Position numbers and translations under genes: made by a program. From Candidatus Methanophagales archaeon (GTDB taxonomy: Archaea; Halobacteriota; Syntropharchaeia; Alkanophagales; Methanospirareceae), in NCBI GenBank assembly GCA_003336485.1, contig QENH01000200.1, forward strand, positions 7,510-71,509: 64,000 nucleotides of DNA, given 5' to 3'. Shown here piece after piece: positions 11,487 through 64,000 of this stretch (positions are counted from its first letter, which is position 1; each line of letters begins with the position of its first letter). The notes beneath the pieces are model-generated. The model did no database searches and was not told the DNA's origin. It saw only the letters and a list, made by a program, of their open reading frames with translations.

Positions 11487-11534
11487 CTTGACGAATAGAA
11501 TAATGCAAAAAGATATGAGGTGAAAAAGAAGAAA
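11487..11534 (+). promoter_or_regulatory. Conserved 5' leader/promoter block shared by the three beta-helix paralogs. The other copies are at 14288-14322 and 16057-16107.
   Basis: The block ATGACGAATAGAATAA(A)TG(C/A)AAAAG recurs immediately upstream of each paralog start. Confidence 0.4.
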
Positions 11535-13940: not shown

Positions 13941-14322
13941 GCGGGGATATTTTGAACTGAATTCTGTCATCGCGATAACACGTCCCAAAGTTGGCTCTTC
14001 GTCCGTCCAGAACTCCCACATATCTTCATCACACGCCGAGTCATATATTCGCGGTGAATTCTCAGTATTGTCTGTCTCACCCTTATCCCGGTCATTGGTG
14101 AGCCAAGCAGTAGAGGAGAGCAACAATAATTTTTGAAGGGTGTATAGCGCGGTTTATTTCGATTATTCAGCCCTGCTTGTGGAGTCGAAAGAGGTTTCTA
14201 CTTTTGGAGTTATAAGGTCACAACTTGTTTATACGTTATCAACACACCAAAATAACACCTGTTCATTCTACCGAGGGTGTTTTATATCAACATGACGAAT
14301 AGAATAAATGAAAAGGAAAAAA

Positions 14323-15876: not shown

Positions 15877-16107
15877 TTGTACGCAATGTTTTGGCTGCAC
15901 AATGAGATTTTTTTATATATATATCAAGCCAAAATGTTCTAGCAAGCAGGTAGCGGCATTTTCCACTTGAAGAGTAAAAAACCCCTATCGTACCCATTTT
16001 ATGAGTCCCTAACACCTATGAATATGACATATTCACCCAACCTATGTCTTTTTATGCAGATATGATGAATAGAACAAATGCAAAAGTATGATGTGGAAAA
16101 GATAAAA

Positions 16108-27774: not shown

Positions 27775-28628
27775 TTCGTTCTCCCCGTAACTTTACACCC
27801 AAAGAGACTACTTATTAGTATCAAGAATATAAGCGCGATGATGAATAGCAGGGGGCTGAAAAGGGTATGGTAAAATCCTGTTGCCGTCTCCGCGCCATAT
27901 GCGTTTGCAATTAGTAGTAGAGATGTAACCCGGATGATATTGGCGAGGATTGCAAGAGGGGGCGTTATACAGAGCAAGATGATCTTCTTATACAACGGGC
28001 ACCGTAAAATGTAGATGAATAGCGTTGCTATTGCCAATAGCGAGATGAGCGAATTCATGCCGCTGCATGGCAAACCGATAATGAAAGCGGCATCTTCAAG
28101 CCGAATCTCCGCCCCTATCCGTGTAACGGGAATACCAAGCATTTCGAGAATTAATGCAGGGAAATATGCAGACAGAGTTTGTAGTGCGTTTGCGACTTTT
28201 CCCAGGAACTCTGGTGGCAATGGGATAGCGAAGATAAGATAGGCGATTGGAAATATGAGAGTGCGCATCAGAGGTTTACCATAGAAATAAAGGATCAAAC
28301 CGCTTGTTGTGAATAAGAATGATAGCGCGGATAAGAAAGGGAAGAGCTTGATAATGCCGATGATATAAAGGATAAGGCCAAAGGCGAAGACGTAGATTCC
28401 TGGTTTACAGGGTTCCTGATTGTCTCCCGGCTCGCTCTTCTTATAGTCTCTGACATTCCACCACGCGATAACGCATGATATAATTAGGATCAAGAACCCA
28501 TGTGTGTAGCACGGATCGGTCCGCCAGAAACTGGCTAACCATATCGGTATAAAGTTGGAAAAAGGCGATGGGAAATATAAAATGACTAAGAGCAGCAAGA
28601 TAAAAATAGTGGTCTTCTTCATCTTCAT
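27771..28628 (-). CDS. Archaeosortase (exosortase/archaeosortase family transpeptidase)
   Basis: 285 aa, polytopic. It carries the family catalytic motif PCSGMNSL (Cys), a conserved Arg in NIIRVTSLL, and an N-terminal lysine-rich stretch followed by a TM. Confidence 0.7.
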   Translation of the reverse strand: MKMKKTTIFILLLLVILYFPSPFSNFIPIWLASFWRTDPCYTHGFLILIISCVIAWWNVRDYKKSEPGDNQEPCKPGIYVFAFGLILYIIGIIKLFPFLSALSFLFTTSGLILYFYGKPLMRTLIFPIAYLIFAIPLPPEFLGKVANALQTLSAYFPALILEMLGIPVTRIGAEIRLEDAAFIIGLPCSGMNSLISLLAIATLFIYILRCPLYKKIILLCITPPLAILANIIRVTSLLLIANAYGAETATGFYHTLFSPLLFIIALIFLILISSLFGCKVTGRTK

Positions 28629-39366: not shown

Positions 39367-40503
39367 CTACCTTTTTCGTCCTACCAGATATGCTACTGCT
39401 AATAGCCCTGCAATAGCGAATACCATTTCAAACCCTATTGTTTCCCTTGGACTAGGTGTGGCCATTGTCCTGGTTGTCGCAGGTGTAGAAATTAGATCCA
39501 CTTTAACAGGAAGCATTATGCTTTTATATTCCGCAGTTGACTTATCTCCTCCAAAATAATAACAAATATCGCTCTCAACATTGAACACACCAACTTGATT
39601 CGTTTTTATGCCCACCCCGATATGTCTTTCCTTTCCCGGTTCTACGGTATAATTAGCTGTATACATACCTGCTCCAGATTCTATAAATTCTATGGATGTA
39701 ATGCTCATTCCTGATGGGACTTTTAGTATCAGTTGCAAAGTCATCGTTGGCTTTGTTATTAGATTGACCGCAGAAAGAGATAATAGAATATCTTCTCCAA
39801 CAGTGACATCTGTCTTTTCTCCATGGAGATAAACACTTGGTTCTCCGGGTTTGGGAGTTGGTGGCGGGGTCTCAGTTGGTGTTTCTGTTGGCATAGAAGT
39901 GTATGTTGATGCCTGTGTGGACGTAGTTATTGTTGGAGTTGGTATGTAGGAGGGGGTAGGTGTTATAAATGGCGTGGGACTCGGTGCTTGTAAGTGGAAA
40001 GGAGTAATAGTAGGTAAATGTTTTGGTGAAGGAGTTATAGCAGGAGTTGGACTTGGTGAAGGTGTTGGTGAAAGTATTGGTGAAGGTGTTATGGTAGGAG
40101 TTGGACTTAGTGTGGGTGTTGGTGAAGGTGTTGGCGAAGGTGTTGGCGAAGGTGTCAATACCTTATAACTCACGGAGATAGTTTTTGTAGCGGTATCACC
40201 AGCATTATCAGTTGCTTCCACTTTTATTATATTGGTGTTGGGGTTTAACGAAATGGTTTTACTCCAGAAAGATGTGCCTGATGCAAGCTCTCCGTTGACC
40301 AGGACACCCTCAATTACTGCTCCCGGAGAAGTGGGGAATGCTGTACCAGAAACCGTTATGGTACCCGTAATCACTTCTGCCTCATCTTCAGGTGTAGCTA
40401 TTTCCAACAAAGGAGCACTTGCAAGCACGGATGTCAAAGAATATATAAGTAAGAAAATGCTGATAGGTACTATAATGAAACCCCTCAAACCTATCCTTTT
40501 CAT
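39367..40503 (-). CDS. PGF-CTERM-anchored surface protein with a Pro/Thr/Ser-rich linker
   Basis: - Start placed at [19 protein letters not shown] (signal/TM).
- Long TPSPTPSP linker.
- C-terminal [23 protein letters not shown], a PGF-CTERM archaeosortase A sorting signal. Confidence 0.7.
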
Positions 40504-40513
40504 GCCAACCTCT

Positions 40514-42811
40514 TTACTGTTCCAATCTAACAATTGGTATCCAAGTATTATAAACTATTATGCTTAGATATGTTTCGGGACCCGTATCAAATTCACTTTC
40601 TGTTGCAACAATAGTAACTTCCCTTGGCTTTGCGATATTTCCTTCTTCATCATTGGCATGTATTATAAAAGTATATCTACCCTCCTTCTTCGGAACAAAG
40701 CTCACCATATACCTATTTCCTACCTCTTCTTTTAACTCCAATGTGGTCAAGTTTATTTCATACATTGTATCATTGCTTATCTGGTCTATGGCAAAATCAG
40801 GTTCAATCAGGGTTACATATACACGCTCTACCTTCAAATCATCTACTACTACCGCCCATATCTCTATTTCTTCACCCACCATCACAGTCTGATTATCAAT
40901 TGAATCTAAGATAGTTGGAGGGAAATCAAGGGCTCCGAATTGGGATCCTATGTATGTTGACGATGACAAAGAGCCATCTCCAGGATATACTGGTGCGGGA
41001 TGCCCAATTCCATCACCATTGTCATCCAACAACGAAATTTGAGGCGATAATCCTACTTTATCGAGCGTATCAGAATATGCTTTTATCTCAGGCACATTTG
41101 ATGTTTCTTCAAAAGCTTCTTTTATGTTCTTCCCTTTTGCTATCGAGTTGAAGAAATATTTTGAGAATGTAGCGCCTGTTTGCTCTATCAACGAATTCGC
41201 TTTTGCGCCCGTTGATGTTACAATTATCCTGCCAGCCGTTGAAAGATTACAAATGAAACTGCCAGAACTACACGATTCTATCACCACCGTTATCTTATAG
41301 CATCCCGTATCAGCGGACAATTCATCCAGATTAGAATCCAACTCCGAAGAACTCAATGTCTCTCCAAGTCCTTTTAACAGAAGCATATCTTCTTTTCCAT
41401 GACCTATTATGTAAATGAACAATGGGACCTCGGTGCCTACTTTCCCCTCTGCCCATGTGTTTATCGCATACGAAATATTTTCCTTTGATGTTTGCATGTC
41501 TACTCTCTCAAAGTTCATGGGACTGAGATAAAATAGCCTTTCATCAGTGAAGCCGCGCTTCAAGAGTGTGTCATAAGTCATGTTTGCTGTCAGGTCAATG
41601 TAATTCTGCGATAGCCATTCGTCGTTTCTGCCAACGATTATAATTGCATATCCTACTTCAATACGGTATTGTTTTACGGTAAAACACATAGTTTCGCTCT
41701 TTATCGCTTTCCCTCCGATAACACAAGAGGCATTTACGTTCCATTCTCCGACCTCATTTGGCGGAAAAGTAATGGCGTAGGAGCCGCTTAATGTGGTCAT
41801 TACAGGCTGCTCTGCAATTTCACCTGTGGGCGATTTGAATATCATGGTTACTATTGTGCTGGATGCAGGAACTATTTCTCCAGAAACCGTTACGCTTTCT
41901 GATCTGTTCAACATAGCAGGACTTACTGAGATTGTGATATGTGTTGGTGGGGTTGGAGTGGGAGTTGGATATTCGTAAGTTGTGGGGGATGCAACAGGTG
42001 TTGGCGTTTGCTGAGCTGAGGGTGAAGGCGTTAATGTTTGAGAAGGTGAAGGTTCTGGAGTGGGAACCGCTCCTCTTGCCTCCTTCTTATCCACTATAAA
42101 ACCAAAAGCAATACCGCTACCATCAGTTTCGAGCTTAATCTTTAACGTGTCCCCAGTGAACCATTCCGTCCACATATCCGCTTCACTTAAAGGGCCCCAA
42201 CTGTATCCATATGTTGCAAGTTCATTCTTGTCTATATCGAGTATCCGCACATAATCATCTTCCAAGAGTTCTATCTTGGTAAAATGAATCCTCATTTCAG
42301 CTACTCCCGGTTCCGAGATGGTCCAGATGTTTTCATAGTTGTTTGCATACGGATGATAGGTTTCTGCTAAATATGAGGATGTTGGTGCTGATTCTGTCCG
42401 CCTTTCCACTTCATCCACTATAAAACCAAAAGCAATACCGCTACCATCAGTTTCGAGCTTAATCTTTAACGTGTCCCCAGTGAACCATTCCGTCCACATA
42501 TCCGCTTCACTTAAAGGGCCCCAACTGTATCCATATGTTGCAAGTTCATTCTTGTCTATATCGAGTATCCGCACATAATCATCTTCCAAGAGTTCTATCT
42601 TGGTAAAATGAATCCTCATTTCAGCTACTCCCGGTTCCGAGATGGTCCAGATGTTTTCATAGTTGTTTGCATACGGATGATAGGATTCTGCTAAATACGA
42701 AGCTGAAACAGTTTGGATTCCGAGTGGGAAGATTCCGATTGACAAGACACATATCAAAAGGATACTACCTAAAAATATGCCGAGCTTCATGATTTTGCCC
42801 TTTCTCTTCAT
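40514..42811 (-). CDS. Secreted legumain/C13-like cysteine peptidase with two tandem CUB-like domains
   Basis: - Signal peptide.
- Two ~130-aa near-identical CUB-like domains ([18 protein letters not shown]...YVRILD...).
- Peptidase core with His in IIGHG and Cys in VIESCSSG, the C13/caspase-like dyad arrangement. Confidence 0.55.
42091..42694 (-). repeat. Near-perfect tandem duplication of the CUB-like domain coding segment (2 copies of ~324 bp)
   Basis: Read directly from the sequence: 42091-42370 and 42415-42694 are nearly identical. Confidence 0.85.
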
Positions 42812-42870
42812 GCTCTCTTCACACCATATAATAAAAAAAGTGAGGCTATTTTTTTTTTCGCCTCACAAGA
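42812..42870 (-). terminator. Hairpin plus oligo-T terminator-like structure after the stop of the PGF-CTERM gene at 42846-43538
   Basis: On the minus strand the sequence is GTGAGGC-GAAAAAAAAAATA-GCCTCAC followed by TTTTTTTT, and the hairpin spans the stop codon. Archaeal termination typically occurs at oligo-T tracts. Confidence 0.5.
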
Positions 42871-43538
42871 TATGCTACTGCTAATGATCCTGTGACCGCT
42901 AAAACTGCTTCAAATCCGGATATTATCGCTGGCGTTTCAGTTGGTAGTTCCTTTACCGTTATAGGATATGTTAGCGATATTGGATTATAATGGTCTTTGT
43001 TATTCCCTGGATAATATAATCCGCTGAAATGTAAAGTATGCTGACCAATTCTCGCATTCTCATCCGCTTTGATATGTAGCGAGATTGTCCTCACCGTTCC
43101 GGGTGGGATTTCGAAAAGTGGTGCATAAGCAACTCCAGCGGCTGTTGCCCATGCATATTCTTCTGAATAGATATGTATTCCGGAAGGAACACTGACATGC
43201 GCTTCCATATGCAATACCACATCGTTCAACGACGGATTGTCTATATATAACTCAACAATACCATCTTGTTTCTTTTCAATTATATCAATTACTGGCCTTA
43301 AACGAACAGTTGGCCCCACTCTGAATTTCTCTTCCGATGGTTTTGGTGTAGCTGGCGCTGGCGTAATAGTGGAGGTAACCACAGGTATAGTTGTTGGCGT
43401 AGACGTTATTATTGGTGCAGGCGTTAGCGTAACGGGCGTTATTGAGGAGGTATATAGCATTGGATAAACAACAAAGGCAATAAGACTAATTACTGCGATT
43501 ATAACACTTGCTAAAGCTATTTTTTCACCTTTATCCAT
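42846..43538 (-). CDS. PGF-CTERM-anchored surface protein
   Basis: - N-terminal TM/signal anchor.
- Thr/Pro-rich stretch.
- C-terminal SGFEAVLAVTGSLAVAYLVRRKKK, a PGF-CTERM signal. Confidence 0.7.
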   Translation of the reverse strand: MDKGEKIALASVIIAVISLIAFVVYPMLYTSSITPVTLTPAPIITSTPTTIPVVTSTITPAPATPKPSEEKFRVGPTVRLRPVIDIIEKKQDGIVELYIDNPSLNDVVLHMEAHVSVPSGIHIYSEEYAWATAAGVAYAPLFEIPPGTVRTISLHIKADENARIGQHTLHFSGLYYPGNNKDHYNPISLTYPITVKELPTETPAIISGFEAVLAVTGSLAVAYLVRRKKK

Positions 43539-50622: not shown

Positions 50623-52077
50623 TCATTCACCGCCGAAGAATCGTCTCATTGTCGGATACATCTCCATCATCTGCTCAGACGCTACGTCTTCATAGAGCCG
50701 GTATGCAATGCTCACCGCCAGAAGTAAACCAGTCCCTGATGCCTGTCCAAGTGTGCCGAACATACTCGAAACCACGCACAACACGCCCAGAATAGCACCG
50801 CCCATAAGCGCTATTTTCGGGATGTATCCTTCCATCATTCGTTCTATCGTTGACGCTGTCCTACGATGCCCCGGTATTTGTAGCCCTGAGTTATGTATCT
50901 GCGCTGCCACATCTTTAGCACCCATTCCTGTTGTATTTATCCAGAACAGGGCAAACATCGCGCCACCTACGATCATAAAAGAGAAGTCAATACACAATCT
51001 TATGGCAATTTGCCAACCTTCAATGCCCGGAAGCACAAGTGCAGGGTACCAATCCCAGGGGCTATATATAGGGCTGAGATAATACATCAAGCCTGAAACC
51101 GCAGTGTTCCCTTCAAACGTCCCAAAAATAGTTATTCCTTGTGAATAAAGCATCCTCCCAAAACCCTGTATGGTCGCTTGTAACGCTCTTACAAGGATCA
51201 TTGGCAGCACACTTGCGTACAACAGCTTAATAGGGAATTTCCCCCGTGCTCCTCTTGCTACCGCATGTGCTAACGGTATCTCTAACCGAGTGCTCTCAAG
51301 ATAAACAACGGTGAAAAATACCGCAATCGTGGATATAAGCGCAATCAGGTGATTTTGGAAAAGGAAAGTCATTCCACCTTCCAGTATCTCGTACCCCGGT
51401 ACTTGTTGCACTATTTCTATCCATCTTGGGATTACGCCCACGGCCCATCCGCTTTGATCGGGAATCCAACTTATAAGGCCGATAATTACCTGTTGCGAGA
51501 CACCTGCGAGGATGAACAGTGAAACACCTGATCCTATACCCCATTTCGAGACCACCTCATCCATGAAGTATATCAGCATCCCACCAGCGAAGACCTGAAG
51601 AAACAGCATGGTCGTAATCCAGAATGGATCCACGCCAAGCTGCGCTGCTACTGCCAGGTCGGGCTTATAAAAGCCTACAACGTACGTCAGACTAATAAAA
51701 GCAGCAAAGACCAAAACGAGCAGTTTCTGGATGTTCTGATAAAACGCCTGATCCTTGGGATCGCTCAAGTTCAACTTTACTATACCTGCACCGACTAAGA
51801 GTTGTAATACAATAGAAGCATCAACAATTGGCATAATACCAAGAGCAGTTAGCGAGAATCGCTCCCCTGCAAATATCGCACGCCATTGCCCGAATAGGTC
51901 CATTGACTCAGGCGATAGCCCAAATAGGGGGATATTACCAAGGGCAAAAAAGAGAACGAGTATGCCCACTGTCCAGGCCAATTTAGTTTTAAAATGAACG
52001 TGCCACTCGGGACGTTCAACCATGGGGAATTTACCTAAAACAGACGATACTACATCTCTGAAGTTTATCGCACTCAT
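50623..52077 (-). CDS. secY: Preprotein translocase subunit SecY
   Basis: 484 aa with 10 TM helices. It sits immediately downstream of uL15 as in the conserved operon. Confidence 0.9.
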   Translation of the reverse strand: MSAINFRDVVSSVLGKFPMVERPEWHVHFKTKLAWTVGILVLFFALGNIPLFGLSPESMDLFGQWRAIFAGERFSLTALGIMPIVDASIVLQLLVGAGIVKLNLSDPKDQAFYQNIQKLLVLVFAAFISLTYVVGFYKPDLAVAAQLGVDPFWITTMLFLQVFAGGMLIYFMDEVVSKWGIGSGVSLFILAGVSQQVIIGLISWIPDQSGWAVGVIPRWIEIVQQVPGYEILEGGMTFLFQNHLIALISTIAVFFTVVYLESTRLEIPLAHAVARGARGKFPIKLLYASVLPMILVRALQATIQGFGRMLYSQGITIFGTFEGNTAVSGLMYYLSPIYSPWDWYPALVLPGIEGWQIAIRLCIDFSFMIVGGAMFALFWINTTGMGAKDVAAQIHNSGLQIPGHRRTASTIERMMEGYIPKIALMGGAILGVLCVVSSMFGTLGQASGTGLLLAVSIAYRLYEDVASEQMMEMYPTMRRFFGGE

Positions 52078-52613: not shown

Positions 52614-53171
52614 ATGAAAATGTCAGAAATAAATATAAAAATAGAGAATGTTGTAGCGAATGCGAGGATTACTGAGAGCCTGGACCTGGAATATGTCGAA
52701 TCTCAGTTAGAAGAAGCGATGTTCACGAAAAAGAAGTTCCCTGGTCTCGTGTATAGGACAAAAGAGCCCAAATCCGCTTTTCTTATCTTCCGCTCTGGAA
52801 AAGTAGTATGCACGGGAGCGAAGACCAAAGAAGGTGTGCGTACTGTAATGGATAAGCTTGCTGCGGACCTCAGAGGCGTAGGTATAGAAGTGGAAGAGCA
52901 TCCCGAATTCAAAGTGCAAAATATCGTGGCTTCTGCCGATCTTGGGAAAGAGCTTAACCTCGGGGCTATTGTGATGGGTTTAGAGCTAGAAGGTATGGAA
53001 TATGAGCCCGAAGTTTTCCCCGGCTTAGTTTATCGTATAACCGATCCAAAGAGTGCTATATTGATTTTCAGTTCGGGCAAGCTGGTTATAACTGGTGGGA
53101 AGACGTTAGACGATTGTAAAAAGTCCGTAGAGATATTACTGACAAAATTAAGGAGTTTAAACCTGTTTTGA
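52614..53171 (+). CDS. tbp: TATA-box-binding protein
   Basis: 185 aa comprising two direct repeats (ENVVANARI... / QNIVASADL...) characteristic of TBP. Confidence 0.9.
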   Translation: MKMSEINIKIENVVANARITESLDLEYVESQLEEAMFTKKKFPGLVYRTKEPKSAFLIFRSGKVVCTGAKTKEGVRTVMDKLAADLRGVGIEVEEHPEFKVQNIVASADLGKELNLGAIVMGLELEGMEYEPEVFPGLVYRITDPKSAILIFSSGKLVITGGKTLDDCKKSVEILLTKLRSLNLF

Positions 53172-53181: not shown

Positions 53182-53994
53182 TTGATGGGCGATAAAGAGA
53201 AGCTGAAAGTAGCAGTTGCGGGAAAGGGCGGTGTGGGTAAAACGACCATTGCCGGCACGCTCGCCCGACTCCTTGCGAGGGATGGGCATACGGTAATAGC
53301 AGTGGATGCAGATCCTTCAATGAACTTAAAATTTGTATTGGGTATAAAGGAGAATCCAAAGCCAGTGTCTGAGCTAAAGGACTTGATTTTCGAGCGGACG
53401 AACGCTTATTCTGGGATCTACAAATTGAATCCCAAAGTGGATGACGTAATCCGAAGATACGGGGCAGAAGGACCCGACGGGGTGACATTGTTGGTAATGG
53501 GAACGATAGAGAAAGGCGGGTCAGGCTGCACATGCCCGGAAAATGCGTTCCTTCGCTCTTTGTTGCATCATACCCTGTTCAAGGAAAACACGGTTATAAT
53601 GGATATGGAAGCAGGGATAGAGCATTTGGGTAGGGGAACGGCAAAGGGGGTTGATCTACTGCTTGCCGTGGTAGAGCCAGGGATGAGATCGGTAGAGACA
53701 GTGGGTAGAATAAAGAAACTCGGAGAGGATATAGGGATAAAGAATATGGCGGCGGTGATGAACAAGGTTACAGATTCAGAGATGGTAAAAACGATAGAAA
53801 CCAAATTAAATGCTATGGGCATTCCATTGCTGGCGATCATACCTCACGATCCGGAGTTGATAAAGGCGGATATAGAGAATAAAGCACCTTTAGATGTGGG
53901 TGGGGATGCAGTTGAGCATATAAAAACAATTAAAGAACTCTTAATTGATTGCCAAACAAATACCGAATACTTAAATAGCAGATATAATAAATGA
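53182..53994 (+). CDS. CooC-type nickel-insertion ATPase (MinD/ParA superfamily)
   Basis: Deviant Walker A AGKGGVGKTT and the CooC CxC metal motif (GSGCTCPE). Confidence 0.65.
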   Translation: MMGDKEKLKVAVAGKGGVGKTTIAGTLARLLARDGHTVIAVDADPSMNLKFVLGIKENPKPVSELKDLIFERTNAYSGIYKLNPKVDDVIRRYGAEGPDGVTLLVMGTIEKGGSGCTCPENAFLRSLLHHTLFKENTVIMDMEAGIEHLGRGTAKGVDLLLAVVEPGMRSVETVGRIKKLGEDIGIKNMAAVMNKVTDSEMVKTIETKLNAMGIPLLAIIPHDPELIKADIENKAPLDVGGDAVEHIKTIKELLIDCQTNTEYLNSRYNK

Positions 53995-54006: not shown

Positions 54007-54300
54007 ATGGAGAACAAGGATAAAGAGCGGGATAAAAAAAGGGCAGAATATGAGGAAGGCTTAAAAAAGACGTTGATACCACTCGCATTTGGTATTCTTG
54101 CAGGTGCCTTATCCTTTATTTTGATAAAAGATCCCGTATCAACGGATGGTTTGATTATTGCAATCATAATGATATTTGTGCAGAAGTTTGTCTATCAGTT
54201 CTTGCATATACCCATGGAAGGTGCAAAAGACTGGATTTATCTCGCTTTTATGACTCTTTTCTGCTGGTTCGTCGCTTATACATTAATGTTGAATCTGTAG
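54007..54300 (+). CDS. Small membrane protein
   Basis: 97 aa with a charged N-terminus followed by two or three TM helices. Confidence 0.4.
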   Translation: MENKDKERDKKRAEYEEGLKKTLIPLAFGILAGALSFILIKDPVSTDGLIIAIIMIFVQKFVYQFLHIPMEGAKDWIYLAFMTLFCWFVAYTLMLNL

Positions 54301-54771
54301 ATCGGAATTCAGAATAATGTGGGTAGCTGCGATAGCGAGGGCATCAGTGACATCGTCGGGCTTTGGCATTTCCGCTAATTTGAGCTTCTCGACTACACTG
54401 GTGGCGACTTCGCTCTTCGTTGCCCTGCCATATCCGGTTATAATGCTCTTTACCTCGGATGTGTTATAGTCATATGCCGGTATGTCTGAGATCGCAGCAG
54501 TTAAGAGACAAACCCCTCGTGCCTGTCCAACACTTAACGCTGTCTTCACGTTTGTATTGAAGAAAATCATCTCTATTGCCATAACATCTGGCGTAACGTC
54601 CTTTATCACGGCGAGCAGATCATAATAGATCTTCTTTAATCGCTCTCCATTCGATTGCGCGGGTGTTGTCTTTACATAACCAAAATCAATTGGTTTTAAT
54701 CGTCCGTTGTTTAACTCGACAACACCCCATCCAGTGCGAGCAGTTCCTGGGTCTATTCCTATCACACGCAT
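54283..54771 (-). CDS. ruvC: Crossover junction endodeoxyribonuclease RuvC (bacterial-type Holliday junction resolvase)
   Basis: RVIGIDPGTARTGWGVV, AIEMIFF, LSVGQARGV, TGYGRATKSEV and DDVTDALAIAATH are colinear with E. coli RuvC motifs, including the catalytic D/E/D/D positions. Confidence 0.7.
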   Translation of the reverse strand: MRVIGIDPGTARTGWGVVELNNGRLKPIDFGYVKTTPAQSNGERLKKIYYDLLAVIKDVTPDVMAIEMIFFNTNVKTALSVGQARGVCLLTAAISDIPAYDYNTSEVKSIITGYGRATKSEVATSVVEKLKLAEMPKPDDVTDALAIAATHIILNSDLQIQH

Positions 54772-54803
54772 AAAAAAACCTTTCTTTCAAAAAGAAAGCT
54801 TTA

Positions 54804-54878
54804 CCAAAGAAACAATATACCTTAGGTAAGATAACCTTCTTCCAAAGAAACAATATACCTTAGGTAAGATAACCTTTC
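54804..54878. repeat. Two tandem copies of a 38-nt unit (CCAAAGAAACAATATACCTTAGGTAAGATAACCTTTCT)
   Basis: Read directly from the sequence. It lies immediately 3' of motif copy C, in the ruvC/csl4 divergent region. Confidence 0.8.
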
Positions 54879-54973
54879 TTTCAAAAAGTTTTAAAACATT
54901 TAGCAAAGAAATATTAATTATACTTAGTATAAAGTAAATTGTTAAGGGGGAGTGAAAAGAAGGAAAGGAAGTA

Positions 54974-55537
54974 ATGGAGAAAGAAGAAGGTATTGTAGTT
55001 CCTGGGGATTTCCTGGGTACTTCTGAGGAATTTACGCCTGGGATGGGCGTGTATGATGAAACTGGAAATATTTATGCCTCTGTGACCGGAGAGATTAGCA
55101 TAAGTGATAAGAGGGTTATAGATGTCCTGCCAAAAGTAGGGACACCGCCAGTGCCAGAAGAGGGAGATGTGGTTATAGGCAGGATAGAAGATTTGAGAGA
55201 TGCTGTTGCTGTCGTGAATATAGCGCGAGTGAAAGGTAAAGATGATCGAGATGTTGCATCATCCACGCAGGGTATTATCCATATATCGAATATAAAGAGC
55301 GGGTATGTGTCAGAATTGCAGCGTGAGTTTGGTTATCTGGATCTGGTGAAGGCGAAAGTGCTGGACGCAAAGGCATTAAGACTTAGCACGGAGGGAAATG
55401 ATTTGGGCGTGATAAAAGCGATATGCGGGAAATGCAAAGGCGATTTGAGGAAGAAAGGGAATACGTTGACGTGTGATACGTGCAAGAGGGTAGAAGAAAG
55501 GAAGCTATCTGACGATTATGGTAAGGGATTAGTGTAG
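54974..55537 (+). CDS. csl4: Exosome complex RNA-binding subunit Csl4
   Basis: An S1 domain plus a C-terminal zinc ribbon (CGKCKGDL...CDTCKR), 187 aa. Confidence 0.8.
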   Translation: MEKEEGIVVPGDFLGTSEEFTPGMGVYDETGNIYASVTGEISISDKRVIDVLPKVGTPPVPEEGDVVIGRIEDLRDAVAVVNIARVKGKDDRDVASSTQGIIHISNIKSGYVSELQREFGYLDLVKAKVLDAKALRLSTEGNDLGVIKAICGKCKGDLRKKGNTLTCDTCKRVEERKLSDDYGKGLV

Positions 55538-55568: not shown

Positions 55569-55859
55569 ATGGAGAATGGCGGGATAAAGATAAAGGTAGT
55601 GGAAAGGGCGGAGAATGAGCTGCGGCTGGAGATAGAAGGGGAGGGCAATACGCTTTTAGCACCGCTGACTTCCAAGCTCCTGGAGAATGAAAATGTAGAC
55701 CTAGCAACCAATAGCATGACACATTCGCTGCTGGGCAATTCCATATTGTATGTGAAGATGAAGGAGGGTGATGCTTTAGAAGCCATAAAATCTGCACTTA
55801 CTTCTCTTGCTTCCGACTTTGAAGAGTTTGGGCGGAAATACCGGGCGGCAATAGTCTAG
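55569..55859 (+). CDS. rpoL: DNA-directed RNA polymerase subunit L (Rpo11)
   Basis: 96 aa. IKVVERAENELRLEIEGEGNTLLAPL matches the Rpo11 N-terminus. Confidence 0.8.
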   Translation: MENGGIKIKVVERAENELRLEIEGEGNTLLAPLTSKLLENENVDLATNSMTHSLLGNSILYVKMKEGDALEAIKSALTSLASDFEEFGRKYRAAIV

Positions 55860-55915
55860 TGGTAGGACATAGGCTTCCCAAGCCTGTAACCCGGGTTCGA
55901 GCCCCGGTTGCCGCA
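55845..55915 (+). tRNA. tRNA-Gly (anticodon CCC)
   Basis: Manually folded:
- acceptor stem GCGGCAA/TTGCCGC;
- D-arm GTCT/GGAC;
- anticodon stem TAGGC/GCCTG with loop TTCCCAA;
- T-arm CCGGG-TTCGAGC-CCCGG;
- discriminator A.
No CCA is encoded, as is common in archaea. It overlaps the rpoL stop by 15 nt. Confidence 0.85.
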
Positions 55916-56018: not shown

Positions 56019-57101
56019 ATGGATCAGATAAAGAAATATGAATTCAGGAAGGTATTGGAAGAACTGAGGGAAAAGACCGGGCGAGGAACCGAGCTCGTTT
56101 CCGTTTACATCCCGCAGGATAAACAGATTTCAGATGTTACTTCTCAGCTCCGTTCGGAGCACGGGCAGGCGATGAACATAAAGAGTAAATCGACACGTAC
56201 TAATGTTCAAAGCTCTCTGGAGTCAATATTAGCGAAGCTGCGGTACGTGCGTGTGGATGAGAACGGGTTGGTTATTTTCTGCGGTGCCGTTGCTAAGGGA
56301 GGGGACAGGACAGATATAGAAACTTTCATTGTGGAGCCGCCAGCGAAGATATATTCCTATATCTACCATTGTGATTCGAGCTTCTTCCTCGAGCCGCTGG
56401 AAGATCTAGTGGACGAGCACGAAAAATACGGCTTGATTGTGCTTGACAAAAGAGAGGCAACGATCGGTCTATTGAATGGTAAGGTGATAGAGTCGCTGAA
56501 GCACATAACTTCCGCTGTTCCGGGAAAGATGAGAAAAGGTGGGCAATCAGCACCGAGATTCCAGCGGCTGCGGTTAATAGCAATCGGGGATTTTTATAAG
56601 CGAATAGGCGAACATACAACACAAGCATTGCTTCATATGGACCTGAAAGGCATTTTGATTGGTGGACCCAGTCCGACGAAGGAGGAATTTTTAAAGGGGT
56701 CTTTCCTGCATTATGAGTTACAAGATAAGATACTGGGCATTTTTGATGTTGCATATACGGATGAATCGGGACTCTATGAACTCGTAGACAAAGCGGATGA
56801 TGTATTAGAGGGGTTGGATTTGGTGCGTGAGCGGAAGCTGATGACAAGGCTCATGAAACTATTGGTTAATAAGGATACTATGGTGGCATACGGCGAACAA
56901 GAAGTGCGGCGGAAATTGGAACAGGGTGCGGTGGATACGCTTTTGGTATCGGAAGAGCTAGATAAGGCGCTTGTGCACGATTTGGTGGAGATGGCCGAGG
57001 TGATAGGGTCAGACGTGGAACTAATTTCAATGGAGTTTGAGGAAGGTGCGCAGTTAAAGCGAGCTTTTGGTGGCGTTGCTGCTATATTGCGCTATGGCTA
57101 G
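56019..57101 (+). CDS. prf1: Peptide chain release factor aRF1
   Basis: The N-terminus YEFRKVLEELREKTGRGTELVSVYIP, the NIKS-containing segment QAMNIKSKSTR and the GGQ motif (KMRKGGQSAPRFQRLR) are all present. Confidence 0.85.
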   Translation: MDQIKKYEFRKVLEELREKTGRGTELVSVYIPQDKQISDVTSQLRSEHGQAMNIKSKSTRTNVQSSLESILAKLRYVRVDENGLVIFCGAVAKGGDRTDIETFIVEPPAKIYSYIYHCDSSFFLEPLEDLVDEHEKYGLIVLDKREATIGLLNGKVIESLKHITSAVPGKMRKGGQSAPRFQRLRLIAIGDFYKRIGEHTTQALLHMDLKGILIGGPSPTKEEFLKGSFLHYELQDKILGIFDVAYTDESGLYELVDKADDVLEGLDLVRERKLMTRLMKLLVNKDTMVAYGEQEVRRKLEQGAVDTLLVSEELDKALVHDLVEMAEVIGSDVELISMEFEEGAQLKRAFGGVAAILRYG

Positions 57102-57785: not shown

Positions 57786-58499
57786 TCAACCCCAACGTTC
57801 ATGGCTCAACATTGACCGATTCAACTCTTCTTTATATAAACGCCATTGCGGCATAAATTTATCCAGATATGCTATAAAACGATCGCTGTGGTTGCGCACT
57901 AAAAGGTGTATCATCTCGTGTACGATAATGTATTCAAGACAGGTTTCCTGCTTTTTCGCGAGTTCTAGATTTAACCAAATTCGACGACTTGCAAGAGTGC
58001 AAGTGCCCCATTTGGTTTTCATTTTCTTAATACCCCAGTCATCAACTTCCACTCCGATTATCTTTTGCCATTTATCCAATAGTGCAGGTACTTGATCTTT
58101 AAGTTGCTTCCGATACCATTTGGTAAGCACTTTCTCGCGCTGCTCGGTCGTGCTCCCAACCCGAACGTAAAGGTCAATATAGGTTTTATTGCGTATTTCT
58201 ACTTTGGGGCTAGCATTGCAATAAATAACATTTAATATATAGCGCCTGCCGTTGTAATAATGACTTTCTCCGGACACAAATTTACGTGCTGATTGACGTT
58301 CTTGAGCTTCAAATTTCAATTGCTGTTTTCTTATCCACGCCATTTTCGTTATAGCAAAAAGGCTAACAGCATCATCATCTAGTTTCAGTGGTGTAGCAAT
58401 GCGCACCCGGCCGTTGGGCGGATATACACCAAGATGCAGATTCTTTATATCCTTTCTTACCACATCTATTGATAGGTCACCTACAGTAATCCGGTGCAT
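57786..58499 (-). CDS. DUF45/YgjP-like M48-family zinc metallohydrolase (accessory gene often found with type I R-M systems)
   Basis: HEMIHLLVRNH (HExxH), 237 aa, positioned directly downstream of hsdR. Confidence 0.75.
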   Translation of the reverse strand: MHRITVGDLSIDVVRKDIKNLHLGVYPPNGRVRIATPLKLDDDAVSLFAITKMAWIRKQQLKFEAQERQSARKFVSGESHYYNGRRYILNVIYCNASPKVEIRNKTYIDLYVRVGSTTEQREKVLTKWYRKQLKDQVPALLDKWQKIIGVEVDDWGIKKMKTKWGTCTLASRRIWLNLELAKKQETCLEYIIVHEMIHLLVRNHSDRFIAYLDKFMPQWRLYKEELNRSMLSHERWG

Positions 58500-58500
58500 T

Positions 58501-61500
58501 TTAATAGTCCCTCTGATTTTTGACTAACCCAAAAATAAGGTCTACTTCATCATCATCATCTATGTGTTTTCGTATCGCATATTTTACTTCACGCTCCTTT
58601 ATCAAATTGCCACGCCAGCCGTCTTTTTTCGTGTGACTGATTTCCGCATCCAGAGCAATCGTGAGTTCTTCATCATGGCTCAAATTATCGTATAGGGCGC
58701 GTTTGGCATTAGAATCCAACCGTTTAGGATATATAGCAGAATCAGCAGGTTTTTTTACTTTTTTACTTAATTCGACTATTTTGGCCAAATATTCTTTATA
58801 ACTTTTGGCTTCTTCTTTTCGTTCATTTATCAATTCATCCAGAAGCGTTGACATATTCTCGTAATACTTCGGATTGGTAGGCATTTGATCGATTATCAGC
58901 CTGCGCATATTGTTTTCTATTGTTTCCGCCACGGCTTCTTTGTTCCTTGTTATGCCTTTCGGTAATGCGTTTACCGCATCCGCGCCTCGTTCTACGATCA
59001 AATCGATCAGCGTCATGTCATCAAAAGCAGAAATCGTTTTGCTTTCTTCTGCACCTATGTACGTGTCTATCAAATGACGCATAGCAGGCTCGTATGCCTT
59101 CAAGTCAATATAATCACCACTTGCCAGTTTTATTTCGGCTCTTACAGCTTCATAATACGCAACATCTCTTTTTATCTGCTCAATTTCTTCTGGTCTATAA
59201 CCGGCTTTCACCATTTCGTTTGCTATGTCGGCATAGGCTCTGATCAATGCTGCTGTATGCTTATATAATGCGATACGCTTTTGTTCCGTTTCTTTTAATT
59301 CGTTCTTAATTTCCGGGTTGCCACAGAAGTAACGAGTATAAGCCAGAGTATCTTTTGGTGCTGCTACCGGTTCGCACAACGCTTTTATTGCTTCCAGTGC
59401 ATTATCTAATCGTTCCTTGCCCAGTGCCAATCTGTCAGTCAATAAACCTGCTACATCTTCTTGTTCGTACGCATCGAATGCTCCTGAGGTATAATCGTCT
59501 ATTGCCTTTTCAAGGCTTTTGAATAGGTCTTTGTAATCGATGATATAGCCATATTCTTTGTCATCGCCATCTAAACGGTTTACACGGCAGATGGCTTGAA
59601 ACAGCCCATGATCCTGCATACTCTTATCAATGTAGAGATAGGTAGCGGAAGGGGCGTCAAAGCCCGCAAGCAGTTTATCCACAACAATGAGCAATTTCAT
59701 CTGGGCAGGTTCTTCTACAAACTTCTTTTTTACTTCTTCTTCAAACGTCTTTGGATCTTTACCATCCAACATCTTCTGATAAACGTCGTATTTCTTCAGT
59801 TTGTCAGTAGGCGAGTCTTCGCCGGTGCTTTCGCCTTTTTGGTCTCCCATTGAGGGTATGTAAGAGGTGACAATGGCACATTTTTTCAAGCCTGCATTTT
59901 GAAACAGTTCATAATATCTACATGCCTGATAAATACTACCTGAGACCAGCATGGCATTGCCCGCACCGTTTTGCAGCCGGTCTTTTGTTTCTATGTCCAG
60001 TAAAATATCGGCAACAATTTTTTCTAATCGTGATTGTGAGCTGAGGACACGTTTCATGGTGCCCCATTTCTTCTTCAGTTCGATTTTGGCGTAGTCGGTT
60101 AATCCTCTTGTCTTTGCCTCGAACCACTGGTCTATCTTTGCCGGTGAGGTGATATTCTGGTCAACGTTCCGTGCCTCGTATCGCAGATCAAGCACTACCT
60201 CATCTTTTACTGCTTCATCGTATTTGTAGGTGTGGATATATTTGCCAAATACTTCTATGCTTTTCTTCTTATCTTTCTTTAGCAGGGGCGTGCCGGTAAA
60301 ACCGATGAGCAATGCATCAGGCAAAATGAATTTCATGGCTTCGTGCAGCTTACCCGACTGTGTGCGGTGGCACTCATCCACAAATACGTAGATGTCGCCT
60401 TTTGCTCGAAAGTCTCTGGGCAGATTTTTCCGGAGGTCTTCTATATAGCCGTCATAATCAGCCTCTTCTTTATTTGCGAATTTATGGATTAGCGAGCAGA
60501 GCAGCCAGGGCGTTGTCGCATTCAATTTATCAATCAAATCTATTCCGCTTCTGGTGCGGGCAATCTTTTCACTGAGACCCAAAAATACTTTCTCTATCTG
60601 CTTATCCAGATCATCACGGTCGGTGATGATGAGTACCCGGGCATCATTGATATTCTCGCGTATCCATTTGGCAAGCCAGACCATGATCAGGCTTTTGCCG
60701 CTACCCTGGGAGTGCCAGATGATACCGCCTTCGCGTTTGCCTATGCTTGCCTGAGATGTCTTGACTGCAAAGTACTGATTGTGCCGGCAGATCTTTTTGG
60801 TGCCGCGATCGTAGACGATAAAATCGTGTAAGAGCTCCAGAAACCGCTCTTTATTGCATAGCTGTGTAATGTGCCGATCAAGCGGGTTTTCTATGTCGCT
60901 TTCTTCTTTCCATGAGAGCCAATATTTTTCCGGTGTTTCGATAACGCCGTAGCGGATGCCTTCGGTATCGTTGCCTGCCATTATCAATTGAATAGTAGCA
61001 AAAAACGGGCGGATAAAAGTTTGCTTTTGATTGTCCAGATTCTGGCGAATACCTTCGGAAACGGACACGGTGCTGCGTTTTAGTTCCAATACGCCTAAGG
61101 CAATGCCATTGACATATAGCACCACGTCCGGGCGTTTATCGTTTTCGCCTTTTACTGTTACCTCTTCTGCTATGGCGAACTCATTTTCAAGTGGATTTTC
61201 CCAATCTATCAGCTTAACGGTCTGGGTGTTTTCACCTACCTCTTCCTTTACACTTACGCCATAACGCAACAGGGAATATACATCTTTGTTGAGGTCGTGC
61301 AAACTCTTGCTCTGGTTGGTTGCGGCCCTGGTAAGCTCGTAAATGGCTTTGACGATAAGGATCTGGCTATAACCTCTTTTAAGCAGGTACTGGTGTAAAA
61401 TCTTCTTTTCTATATTGCCATTGTTCTCGCGGTCTTCCCAGTTGCCGAGATATTCATAGCCTAAATGTGTTTGGAACAGGTCTACCACTCGGTCCTGTGT

Positions 61501-61530
61501 GATGCGTTCTATTTGTCCTATTGGTGTCAT
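58501..61530 (-). CDS. hsdR: Type I restriction enzyme R subunit HsdR
   Basis: 1009 aa with an N-terminal nuclease-domain region, the SF2 helicase motif I (HSQGSGKS) and DEAH-like motif II (VFVDECHRTQ), plus C-terminal helical domains. Confidence 0.9.
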   Translation of the reverse strand: MTPIGQIERITQDRVVDLFQTHLGYEYLGNWEDRENNGNIEKKILHQYLLKRGYSQILIVKAIYELTRAATNQSKSLHDLNKDVYSLLRYGVSVKEEVGENTQTVKLIDWENPLENEFAIAEEVTVKGENDKRPDVVLYVNGIALGVLELKRSTVSVSEGIRQNLDNQKQTFIRPFFATIQLIMAGNDTEGIRYGVIETPEKYWLSWKEESDIENPLDRHITQLCNKERFLELLHDFIVYDRGTKKICRHNQYFAVKTSQASIGKREGGIIWHSQGSGKSLIMVWLAKWIRENINDARVLIITDRDDLDKQIEKVFLGLSEKIARTRSGIDLIDKLNATTPWLLCSLIHKFANKEEADYDGYIEDLRKNLPRDFRAKGDIYVFVDECHRTQSGKLHEAMKFILPDALLIGFTGTPLLKKDKKKSIEVFGKYIHTYKYDEAVKDEVVLDLRYEARNVDQNITSPAKIDQWFEAKTRGLTDYAKIELKKKWGTMKRVLSSQSRLEKIVADILLDIETKDRLQNGAGNAMLVSGSIYQACRYYELFQNAGLKKCAIVTSYIPSMGDQKGESTGEDSPTDKLKKYDVYQKMLDGKDPKTFEEEVKKKFVEEPAQMKLLIVVDKLLAGFDAPSATYLYIDKSMQDHGLFQAICRVNRLDGDDKEYGYIIDYKDLFKSLEKAIDDYTSGAFDAYEQEDVAGLLTDRLALGKERLDNALEAIKALCEPVAAPKDTLAYTRYFCGNPEIKNELKETEQKRIALYKHTAALIRAYADIANEMVKAGYRPEEIEQIKRDVAYYEAVRAEIKLASGDYIDLKAYEPAMRHLIDTYIGAEESKTISAFDDMTLIDLIVERGADAVNALPKGITRNKEAVAETIENNMRRLIIDQMPTNPKYYENMSTLLDELINERKEEAKSYKEYLAKIVELSKKVKKPADSAIYPKRLDSNAKRALYDNLSHDEELTIALDAEISHTKKDGWRGNLIKEREVKYAIRKHIDDDDEVDLIFGLVKNQRDY

Positions 61531-61533
61531 ATC

Positions 61534-62150
61534 TTAGCCCCCTATAACTTTCCAATGCCCGCCTTTATCTGGGCCAACTCTTATAAGTTTACCCTCTTGT
61601 TGCAAGTTTTGGATGTTTCTTTCGATTGAACGTGTGGTTACGCCAATTATTTCTGCAAGTTCCGGTATCGTTATCCAGTCATTTGATTTAATTGCCTCCA
61701 CTATTTTCACCGACGTTTTCACCGACGTTTCTTCCGGAACAATATAGTTACTTAGCTTAAACTCAAGATAAAAACCGGAGAAATCATACTTGAATTCAGG
61801 TACGGGCAAACCAGCTCTCTTGCATTCACTGTTAATTTTCTGAATGCCTCGCCCCCCATGCTTCAATTAAGCCTGCACGGAAAAATGCATTCGCAATATC
61901 GGGATTATACGGTTTGGAGGGGTGTTTTTGTTTTAGCGTTTCAATTGTCCAGTTTTCAGGTAATTGACCATCGTTCCATAAAACTATTTTATCATCATAA
62001 ACGCTTATTTGGATGGGGACGCCGTTGCTATAATCTTTGTGTACAACGGCATTTAACAGGGCTTCACGCAAAGCCGGTCTGGGAAACGGGTATTTTTCAA
62101 TTCTGGTCAGATCGTCATAACTTATATTCGCCCTCATGTATTTGGTAAGC
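61534..62150 (-). pseudogene. Transcriptional-regulator-like ATPase gene (HATPase_c_4 core plus C-terminal wHTH; AlbA_2/Schlafen-like family), 5'-truncated and frameshifted
   Basis: Two overlapping ORFs (61832-62230 and 61534-61866) carry the HATPase_c_4-like core (LLNAVVHKDYSNGVPIQISVYDDKIVLWNDG) and the wHTH tail. The frameshift is near the C-run at ~61855-61861. Homology stops at ~62150, where sequence identical to the beta-helix repeat begins. Confidence 0.6.
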
Positions 62151-64000
62151 AGCAACACGATACATAGCAATACCGCTTCAAGCAACGACTTCGGCATCGA
62201 TCTGTATTCTTCAAGCAACAATAACCGCATCTATAACAACTACTTCAACAACTTCCATAACAATGCTCGAGATGACGGGAGCAACATCTGGGACATCTCG
62301 CCGACCTTAGGAGGGAACATAATCGGCGGTTCCTGGCTGGCTGGTAACTACTGGAGCGATTATGCCGGAATAGATGCAAATGGCGATGGGCTTGGAGATA
62401 CATTACTACCGTATAACGCCAATGGTGATATTTTAATAGGTGGCGATATGCATCCATTGGTTCCAGCGGGTATTGCACCCCTTTTAGCACTAAAAAAATC
62501 AGACGACCTCGATCCCATCCCGCCCGGCGGCACATTGAACTATTCTATTATCGTGAATAACGTTGGATATATAACAACAACGAATGTCACAGTGACAGAG
62601 ACATACGATATGAACGTTGCCTACGACTCGGCTATGCCTGCGCCTTCATCAGGAAACGACATGTGGATATTCCCGGTGCTCAATGCAAACGAGAGCAAAT
62701 GGATCAATATTTCCGTTATTGTCAACCCGTCCATTCCGATAGGAACGGTCCTACATAATACCGTTAATGTGTCCAGTGCAGAAGGAGTAACTGATTCTGA
62801 TACAGAGGCTACAACTGTCTTCTTCGGTGAACAAAACTGCACCTGTGGCGACATATGTGTAATTACAACCGGCTGGTGGCGAGATGGCGGCGCGTTTCAT
62901 CCAACTGATACGCCGATACAAGATGCAATAGAGAACGCAGGTACGGGTGATACTATTTGCGTTAAGGATGGCACGTACAATGAGAACGTGAATGTGGACA
63001 AGCGATTAACGCTAAAATCGGATAACTGTGCTGCTTCGACCACGGTTAATGCTTTATATCCAAATGAGCATGTATTTGAGGTGACTGCGGATTATGTAAA
63101 CATATCGGGATTCACTGTTAAAGGAGCAACAGGTAAAGGAAAGGCAGGAATATATCTCAGCAGTAGCATAGATCACTGCAACATTTATGATAACAACGCT
63201 TCGGATAATAACTATGGCATCTATATGATGGAGTCGAGCTACAACAGGATCACAAGCAATACCGTCTCGAACAACGACAGGTATGGCATTTACCTGCGGC
63301 GTGAGTCGAGCAACTACAACACAATCACAAACAACATTGCTTTGAACAACGACTACGGCATCCGCCTGTCTCATTCCAGCAACAACACGATACATAGCAA
63401 TACCGCTTCAAGCAACGACTTCGGCATCGATCTGTATTCTTCAAGCAACAATAACCGCATCTATAACAACTACTTCAACAACTTCCATAACAATGCTCGA
63501 GATGACGGGAGCAACATCTGGGACATCTCGCCGACCTTAGGAGGGAACATAATCGGCGGTTCCTGGCTGGCTGGTAACTACTGGAGCGATTATGCCGGAA
63601 TAGATGCAAATGGCGATGGGCTTGGAGATACATTACTACCGTATAACGCCAATGGTGATATTTTAATAGGTGGCGATATGCATCCATTGGTTCCAGCGGG
63701 TATTGCACCCCTTTTAGCACTAAAAAAATCAGACGACCTCGATCCCATCCCGCCCGGCGGCACATTGAACTATTCTATTATCGTGAATAACGTTGGATAT
63801 ATAACAACAACGAATGTCACAGTGACAGAGACATACGATATGAACGTTGCCTACGACTCGACTATTCCTGCGCCTTCCGTAGGGAATGACACGTGGATAT
63901 TCCCTGCACTCAATGCAAACGAGACCAGATGGATTAATATTTCCGTTTCTGTCAATCCGTCCACTCCGATAGGAACTGTTCTACATAATATCGTTAAGGT
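62136..64000 (+). CDS. Beta-helix/NosD-like plus DUF11-like repeat protein. It is open-ended with no stop in the window, no signal peptide at the first ATG, and is probably a fragment.
   Basis: Own translation of the plus strand from ATG 62136 (preceded by an in-frame TAA at 62118): [40 protein letters not shown]...[37 protein letters not shown]...DUF11-like LALKKSDDLDPIPPGGTLNYSIIVNNVG...CTCGDICVITTGWW...PbH1 repeats, then the same unit again. The ORF track missed it because the ORF does not terminate inside the window. The minus-strand ORFs listed here are antisense artefacts. Confidence 0.6.
   Translation, partial: MYLVSSNTIHSNTASSNDFGIDLYSSSNNNRIYNNYFNNFHNNARDDGSNIWDISPTLGGNIIGGSWLAGNYWSDYAGIDANGDGLGDTLLPYNANGDILIGGDMHPLVPAGIAPLLALKKSDDLDPIPPGGTLNYSIIVNNVGYITTTNVTVTETYDMNVAYDSAMPAPSSGNDMWIFPVLNANESKWINISVIVNPSIPIGTVLHNTVNVSSAEGVTDSDTEATTVFFGEQNCTCGDICVITTGWWRDGGAFHPTDTPIQDAIENAGTGDTICVKDGTYNENVNVDKRLTLKSDNCAASTTVNALYPNEHVFEVTADYVNISGFTVKGATGKGKAGIYLSSSIDHCNIYDNNASDNNYGIYMMESSYNRITSNTVSNNDRYGIYLRRESSNYNTITNNIALNNDYGIRLSHSSNNTIHSNTASSNDFGIDLYSSSNNNRIYNNYFNNFHNNARDDGSNIWDISPTLGGNIIGGSWLAGNYWSDYAGIDANGDGLGDTLLPYNANGDILIGGDMHPLVPAGIAPLLALKKSDDLDPIPPGGTLNYSIIVNNVGYITTTNVTVTETYDMNVAYDSTIPAPSVGNDTWIFPALNANETRWINISVSVNPSTPIGTVLHNIVK
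62150..62630 (+). repeat. Direct repeat, copy 1, of a ~1.23 kb unit. Copy 2 is at 63380-63860.
   Basis: Blocks compared by eye (62161-62340 vs 63391-63570 and 62581-62630 vs 63811-63860) are identical at a 1230-bp offset. Downstream the copies diverge to roughly 85%. Confidence 0.8.
63380..63860 (+). repeat. Direct repeat, copy 2 (see 62150-62630)
   Basis: Same comparison as for copy 1. Confidence 0.8.

Follow-up and report, generated by a model that had tools for sequence, protein, structure and literature searches.

We analysed a 64,000-nucleotide (nt) stretch of contig QENH01000200.1 (assembly GCA_003336485.1) from a Candidatus Methanophagales archaeon, hereafter the window, in which a gene for the crossover-junction endodeoxyribonuclease RuvC lies at 54283..54771 on the minus strand. 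The open reading frame (ORF) runs from ATG to stop and encodes 162 amino acids (aa), with a DEDD set of acidic residues and a Phe wedge; its translation begins MRVIGIDPGTARTGWGV. All the RuvC motifs listed in the first-pass annotation were found in this ORF and in the correct order, namely IGIDPG (residues 4-9), GWGV (14-17), AIE (65-67), GQARGV (82-87), TGYGRATKSEV (112-122) and DALAIAATH (143-151). At its 3' end ruvC converges with a gene for a 97-aa EMC6-arch small membrane protein (54007-54300, plus strand; PF19094, 73.8 bits). The two overlap by 18 nt (54283..54300), as had been claimed, and the partner, previously described as a small membrane protein, is an archaeal EMC6 homologue. Upstream, a spacer of 202 nt (54772..54973) separates ruvC from the divergent csl4, which encodes an exosome subunit (54974-55537, plus strand; Pfam ECR1_N and EXOSC1).

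Domain models assigned the protein to the RuvC family. Pfam PF02075 (RuvC) matched at 137.9 bits against a cut-off of 22.2 over the whole profile (1-148 of 148) and was the sole Pfam match of the protein, with no match to PF03652 (YqgF/RuvX) or PF01870 (Hjc/Hje) in the same scan. Two NCBIfam equivalog models for RuvC were also passed, NF000711 at 189.1 bits (cut-off 163) and TIGR00228 at 116.5 bits (cut-off 100.65). When PDB sequences were searched, the significant matches were RuvC proteins only (E. coli, Thermus, Pseudomonas and Deinococcus; E 1e-26 to 5e-19), and E. coli RuvC (1hjr) aligned across residues 3-155 with E = 1.2e-26. Alignment with E. coli RuvC showed that the catalytic acids D7, E67, D140 and D143 correspond to D7, E66, D138 and D141 of that enzyme, and that the F70 wedge and the lysines K108 and K119 correspond to Phe69, Lys107 and Lys118. 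All seven of these residues are kept in the window protein, as they are in each of eight homologues from archaea and bacteria. In an alignment of 37 sequences the catalytic acids, K108 and K119 were invariant, and F70 was present in at least 90% of the sequences.

An AlphaFold2 model of the protein, built on the same 37-sequence alignment, had a mean predicted local distance difference test score (pLDDT) of 93.3 and a predicted template-modelling score (pTM) of 0.89. In a fold search with this model the best 12 PDB matches were all RuvC, with template-modelling (TM) scores of 0.83-0.95 and root-mean-square deviations of 1.1-2.6 Å, and the matches included 6s16, the complex of Thermus RuvC with a Holliday junction. 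The bacterial RuvC structures (1hjr; Thermus thermophilus 4ep4, 4ld0 and 6s16; Pseudomonas 6lw3; Deinococcus 7w8d and 7xhj) share family, length, DEDD residues, Phe wedge and lysines with the window protein, to which they are about 35-38% identical in the fold-search alignments. The model superposes on RuvC crystal structures, 6s16 among them, with TM 0.85-0.95 and deviations of 1.1-1.6 Å. We also considered whether the gene could be a decaying relic or could encode another protein of the RNase H fold, for instance YqgF/RuvX or a RuvC-like nuclease of the transposon type. The folds are related, and RuvX (7ess) and YqgF (1nu0) do appear far down the fold-search list; however, they score a TM of only 0.49-0.52, against about 0.9 for RuvC. 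Moreover, RuvC is the only Pfam family matched, the RuvC equivalog models are passed, and the protein has the proper length and no additional domains. Decay is excluded by the invariant catalytic tetrad together with a ratio of non-synonymous to synonymous substitution rates (dN/dS) of about 0.1. A different fold family or a relic is thus scarcely credible. Judged by its sequence and modelled structure, the window protein is a canonical bacterial-type RuvC.

The gene lies within a block of archaeal genes. Its neighbours include TBP (52614-53171, plus strand), a MinD/CooC/ArsA-class P-loop ATPase (53182-53994, plus strand) and RpoL (55569-55859, plus strand), which with Csl4 bear out the archaeal information-processing context that had been noted; further neighbours are SecY (50623-52077, minus strand), L15 (52078-52497, minus strand) and aRF1 (56019-57101, plus strand). 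Elsewhere in the window the Pfam survey, which covered 55 ORFs (nearly all the long non-overlapping ones), identified AglB, formylmethanofuran:H4MPT formyltransferase, RtcB, S19e and GatB, a gene content that is typical for a methane-metabolising archaeon. An archaeal host is upheld both by TBP, aRF1, RpoL, Csl4, AglB and the formyltransferase in the window and by the closest homologues and loci, which belong to anaerobic methanotrophic archaea of group 1 (ANME-1, Methanophagales).

In a protein database search, about 67 clusters with 54-95% identity to the window RuvC ranked above the first bacterial match. The named ones were all Methanophagales (ANME-1), Methanospirareceae (the basal ANME-1c family) or Alkanophagales, and many of their members were already auto-annotated as 'crossover junction endodeoxyribonuclease RuvC'. 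When one genome was scanned for each GTDB species, 20 loci were recovered, all of them ANME-1 by our reading of RuvC identity and common synteny. Of these, 13 have the gene order of the window, with aRF1-RpoL-Csl4 divergent from RuvC, which converges with EMC6; EMC6 adjoins ruvC in 15 loci (in two of them without csl4) and csl4 in 13, and the other five are mostly short or end at ruvC. The 18-nt overlap with EMC6 also recurs, according to tblastn coordinates, in L001-L005 and L007-L010, and is off by a few bases in L006. EMC6-arch (downstream, convergent) and csl4 (upstream, divergent) are thus synteny anchors, the former not being a functional partner. In Alkanophagales and Syntrophoarchaeum ruvC is solitary too and has other neighbourhoods; the Syntrophoarchaeum gene adjoins SRP19, with UvrA 5 kb off.

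Some of the recovered loci carry public labels that do not fit their content. L005, L012, L015, L018 and L019 are labelled 'Halobacteria archaeon', 'Methanosarcinales archaeon' or 'Nitrosotalea sp.', yet their RuvC is of the ANME-1 type (68-94% identical). The ANME-1 syntenic block is present in L005, L012, L015 and L019, and L018 has the ruvC match only. The taxon labels of these five metagenome-assembled genomes (MAGs) look wrong.

Such mislabelled records of the locus, and the fact that the nearest non-archaeal relatives of the protein are bacteria common in similar metagenomes, could suggest an assembly or binning artefact in which a bacterial gene was joined to archaeal sequence. We regard this as having next to no chance of being right. 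The gene shares 18 nt with the archaeal EMC6 gene and is surrounded by other archaeal genes, and the idea is refuted by the recurrence of the arrangement in 13 of 20 loci, one of them on a 141.7-kb contig of the single-cell genome AG-394-G06, and by an independent Logan assembly that holds an identical RuvC protein in the same arrangement.

Comparison with neighbouring genes and with relatives showed that ruvC behaves like a resident gene. Its guanine and cytosine content (GC, 0.454) and that at third codon positions (GC3, 0.448) were inside the range of the neighbouring genes; by composition the gene showed no sign of foreign origin, which is what would be expected for an old transfer. Pairwise dN/dS of ruvC was 0.08-0.13 with seven close relatives and 0.13-0.20 with three lineages of ANME-1 that are distant. 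Among the close relatives this is similar to aRF1 (0.08-0.12) and SecY (0.09-0.12) and below L15, RpoL and Csl4. Across lineages RuvC is 68-81% identical, a divergence similar to that of its neighbours (72-80% for Csl4 and 75-82% for aRF1). These values indicate that ruvC is under purifying selection as strong as that on aRF1 and SecY.

The spacer between ruvC and csl4 contains a repeated AT-rich, TATA-like module (GGTATATTGTTTCTTTGGTAAAG...CTTTCTTTTTGAAAGAAAGG) that ends in the palindrome CTTTCTTTTTGAAAGAAAG directly upstream of the ruvC ATG. There are about three copies in the window, among them an exact tandem pair of 35 nt each (54804-54838, 54842-54876). In seven relatives (L001-L007), whose RuvC is 94-96% identical, the spacer is 81-181 nt long and holds, by reading, one or two copies of the module; in distant ANME-1 it measures 59-86 nt and the module is absent. 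We infer that the module is the ruvC promoter or leader, and its repetition may represent a duplicated promoter or operator.

Next to be considered is the origin of the gene. An exhaustive search of 1.84 billion cluster representatives returned 11,528 proteins at E <= 0.001; an ANME-1 cluster scored 238 bits, and the next full-length match 153 bits with 49% identity. The tier below the archaeal clusters, at about 50-55% identity, was bacterial, and its few named members, mostly Patescibacteria, were Levybacteria, 'Patescibacteria group' and Xenobia. When 20 near-relative clusters were looked up, a non-archaeal organism name was obtained for one (a Ruminococcus sp. MAG). The closest non-archaeal RuvC proteins are those of Patescibacteria (candidate phyla radiation, CPR) and allied uncultured bacteria (Levybacteria P0069 and P0093; P0070 and P0095), which share with the window protein an extended C-terminal motif, PKPDDVTDALA. 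Unlike the window gene, theirs stand in ruvC-ruvA-ruvB operons beside bacterial ribosomal genes. The four nearest relatives inspected all lie in bacterial surroundings, with ruvA-ruvB directly downstream in three and yebC upstream in two: the order is ruvC-ruvA-ruvB in P0070 and P0095, yebC-ruvC-ruvA-ruvB in P0127 and yebC-ruvC in P0100. The third-best representative, P0121 (272 aa, from an ENA contig), had the appearance of a fused double RuvC; it is bacterial and contains an exact internal duplication of about 100 residues, and is most likely an assembly artefact.

Neighbour-joining (NJ) trees of 203 and 112 sequences, in which the topology outside the archaeal clade is not trustworthy, placed the archaeal proteins among bacterial RuvC. 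In both trees the ANME-1 sequences and the Alkanophagales-type P0067 and P0066 formed one clade, with a bootstrap of 94/100 in the 112-sequence tree, nested among bacterial sequences. The next branch in both point trees was the RuvC of Candidatus Syntrophoarchaeum butanivorans (OFV66877.1 and relatives), which is about equally near to ANME-1 (182 bits) and to the bacterial tier (180 bits). ANME-1, Alkanophagales and Syntrophoarchaeum represent three sister orders of the class Syntrophoarchaeia (PMC9894754), and the branching of the three RuvC groups in the point trees mirrors this organismal relationship. From these sequence comparisons, one transfer before the split of ANME-1 and Alkanophagales is well supported, and a single transfer into the ancestor of the class Syntrophoarchaeia is plausible. 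The donor was presumably a bacterium, with the closest named matches in Patescibacteria and the donor phylum beyond the resolution of NJ trees. The suggestion that ruvC is an old bacterial acquisition is therefore borne out by its constant slot across divergent ANME-1, host-like GC and GC3, a dN/dS of about 0.1 and the position of the 94/100 clade among bacterial sequences.

A related idea is that ruvC is part of a mobile element or an integrated virus, or that such an element brought it in recently. Phage RuvC-like resolvases do exist, PHROG 159 matches the window protein at 90.5 bits, and a type I restriction island starts about 1 kb beyond aRF1. However, the PHROG score is well below that of the cellular model, a scan of IMG/VR for close relatives found none, and viral RuvCs reach at most 46% identity in a profile scan, which is farther away than the cellular bacteria at about 50-55%. 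In addition, composition is host-like, there is no adjoining integrase, transposase or repeat boundary, and the slot between csl4 and EMC6 is constant in lineages whose flanking housekeeping proteins are 57-82% identical. We consider a viral or mobile gene very improbable.

The first-pass annotation had also pointed out that no ruvA or ruvB adjoins this ruvC. Neither gene was found beside it, whether in the window or at 24 related archaeal loci: over these 371 kb, two bacterial RuvA/RuvB pairs used as tblastn queries returned only AAA+ noise with 22-33% identity, and none of the 55 window ORFs in the Pfam survey had a domain of RuvA, RuvB, Hjc, RadA or Hel308. Thus, unlike the bacterial RuvC enzymes, the window RuvC is encoded by a solitary gene in an archaeal host, between EMC6 and csl4 and outside any yebC-ruvC-ruvA-ruvB arrangement, and locally it is not part of a RuvABC resolvasome. 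In bacteria the RuvAB motor hands junctions to RuvC. Proteins of the RuvC fold can nevertheless work without RuvAB, as seen from the mitochondrial Cce1/Ydc2, chloroplast MOC1, poxvirus A22 and the RuvC of lactococcal phage bIL67. These are far from the window protein in fold alignments (TM 0.5-0.7, 12-19% identity), and the latter belongs squarely to the bacterial RuvC family, apart from those divergent branches. Since the archaeal genes lack linked ruvAB, whereas three of the four nearest bacterial relatives have them, the archaeal RuvC most likely works without RuvAB.

Junction resolution in archaea is ascribed to Hjc, with RuvC as the bacterial resolvase, and Hjc has been reported in all sequenced archaea except Thermoplasma (review PMC10956419). 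Archaeal Hjc/Hje (PF01870, of the PD-(D/E)XK type) are small homodimeric Mg2+-dependent nucleases that presumably do the same task as RuvC, nicking Holliday junctions symmetrically, and are unrelated to it in fold and ancestry. A local hidden Markov model was built from the Hjc of P. furiosus and A. fulgidus and from two Sulfolobus sequences. Applied to every six-frame ORF in the window and the loci (387 kb, a small fraction of a genome), it picked up a bacterial UPF0102 protein and nothing else. With A. fulgidus Hjc as the query, 71 candidates came from the database, the named ones being Archaeoglobi and the Methanosphaera group, with no recognisable Syntrophoarchaeia among them. Likewise, a profile of 10 diverse Hjc sequences yielded only Archaeoglobi and Methanosphaera as named entries among its best 120 matches and no recognisable Syntrophoarchaeia, and the contigs of two candidate Hjc proteins have whole-genome shotgun prefixes unrelated to ANME-1 assemblies. 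A small recombination-repair cluster is present on one archaeal contig (L044, 2557-4399), where the gene for Hjc has that for a second putative junction nuclease (PF10107, Endonuc_Holl) at a distance of about 1 kb and that for an ATP-dependent DNA ligase at 1.5 kb. In the literature searched, full text and supplements included, there was no discussion of RuvC, Hjc or Holliday junctions in ANME-1 or Syntrophoarchaeum. Matches to 'RuvC' in a paper on Methanoperedens plasmids concerned the unrelated RuvC_1 transposase family.

If Hjc does the ordinary resolution in these archaea, RuvC might have been put to a new use, for example at stalled or reversed forks, on chromosome dimers or catenanes, or on viral replication intermediates. 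The absence of the RuvAB partner nearby would fit this idea, as would the copy number of the promoter-like module, which varies among close relatives and hints at tunable expression; with Hjc as general in archaea as the review describes (PMC10956419), a second resolvase might be specialised, like Sulfolobus Hje. Yet all the residues known for junction binding and cleavage are kept, the equivalog models that the protein passes are meant for conserved function, there is no match to defence-system models, and the neighbourhood is a stable housekeeping one and no defence island. A new use is therefore unlikely, though less remote than a viral or mobile gene. A junction resolvase fits what was seen in sequence, predicted structure and selection alike, and nothing there points to an altered active site.

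The explanation we favour, and consider probable, is that the window gene encodes a canonical, functional RuvC Holliday-junction resolvase of bacterial origin, which entered an ancestor of ANME-1 and Alkanophagales, possibly earlier in Syntrophoarchaeia, and was then inherited vertically as a chromosomal housekeeping gene. It is founded on the family, the intact active site and the predicted fold, on a conserved location and purifying selection, on the affinity of the clade to bacteria and on the lack of ruvAB in the vicinity. By analogy, we infer that the enzyme cleaves junctions in vivo as a dimer, independently of RuvAB and possibly with archaeal partners. A homodimer with an RNase H-like fold would bind a four-way DNA junction, into which Phe70 would wedge at the crossover. 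Mg2+ held by D7, E67, D140 and D143 would then allow two symmetric nicks in strands of like polarity, and the products would be nicked duplexes that a ligase could seal. After the transfer ruvC alone would have been kept and ruvAB not, and RuvC may act by itself on spontaneously migrating junctions or together with archaeal helicases such as Hel308/Hjm or Hef.

Several points weigh against this explanation. E. coli RuvC needs RuvAB in vivo, which means that a solitary RuvC needs some substitute. The search for RuvAB reached about 64 kb of the genome and at most 20 kb per relative, and these proteins could be encoded elsewhere. The literature searched offered no biochemical or expression data on any archaeal RuvC. 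The node joining Syntrophoarchaeum to the archaeal clade had a bootstrap of only 15/100 in the 112-sequence NJ tree, so that any dating of the transfer to before the ANME-1/Alkanophagales ancestor is tentative. Finally, in the comparison with neighbouring genes, the codon-usage fit of ruvC was the lowest of 15 genes, although marginally (-1.21 versus -1.02 to -1.15), next to its host-like GC and GC3.

Several other features of the window and its relatives were observed. The EMC6 gene (PF19094) starts 12 nt downstream of the gene for the MinD/CooC/ArsA-Get3-class P-loop ATPase and lies about 2 kb from secY. ATPase and EMC6 genes are adjacent in the close relatives L001-L007 and 0.9-2.8 kb apart in L015 and L019, and the two may form a module for membrane-protein insertion. 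A second SecY paralogue, which is divergent (59-61% identity with the SecY of the window), is encoded directly beside the canonical secY in L001 (6645-8066) and L007 (14175-15635), and is found neither in the window nor in other relatives. The only Rfam match in the window, a tRNA-Gly(CCC) at 55845-55915 on the plus strand, covers the final 15 nt of the RpoL ORF, which has the same orientation.

About 0.7 kb past aRF1, the region 57786-62535 carries genes for a YgjP-like metallopeptidase and for the type I restriction subunit HsdR (1009 aa), followed by small helix-turn-helix and HATPase_c_4 fragments. The HsdR/YgjP pair is also present in L002 and L007 and is absent from the flank of L004, and no HsdM or HsdS was identified among the scanned ORFs; the region looks like a variable island at the edge of the conserved block. 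Farther away, three successive large NosD/right-handed beta-helix proteins of 806, 522 and 1512 aa, presumably surface proteins, are encoded at 11520-20616. An exosortase-family (EpsH-type) protein is encoded at 27771-28628, and PGF-CTERM proteins at 39367-40533 and 42846-43538.

The enzyme itself is not new, and public MAG pipelines already name RuvC in these genomes. What appears to be undescribed is a fixed, strongly constrained and solitary RuvC across ANME-1 and Alkanophagales that is also present in Syntrophoarchaeum, together with its age, its conserved slot and its bacterial nearest relatives. It is conceivable, though we would rather doubt it, that RuvC without RuvAB replaced Hjc in ANME-1 and Alkanophagales, perhaps in all Syntrophoarchaeia. 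If Hjc is indeed missing, a core repair enzyme would have been displaced; at the level of the class this would be a non-orthologous displacement affecting the core of the recombination machinery, and a bacterial resolvase would have been wired into an archaeal, eukaryote-like RadA-based pathway, where it would have gained new partners, for instance PCNA, Hel308 or Hef. An entire order of methane-oxidising archaea of environmental importance, with its sister order, keeps a bacterial RuvC. Together, these results make ruvC a clean marker of ancient bacteria-to-archaea transfer in Syntrophoarchaeia, and the ANME-1 gene a natural test of RuvC function inside an archaeal recombination pathway.

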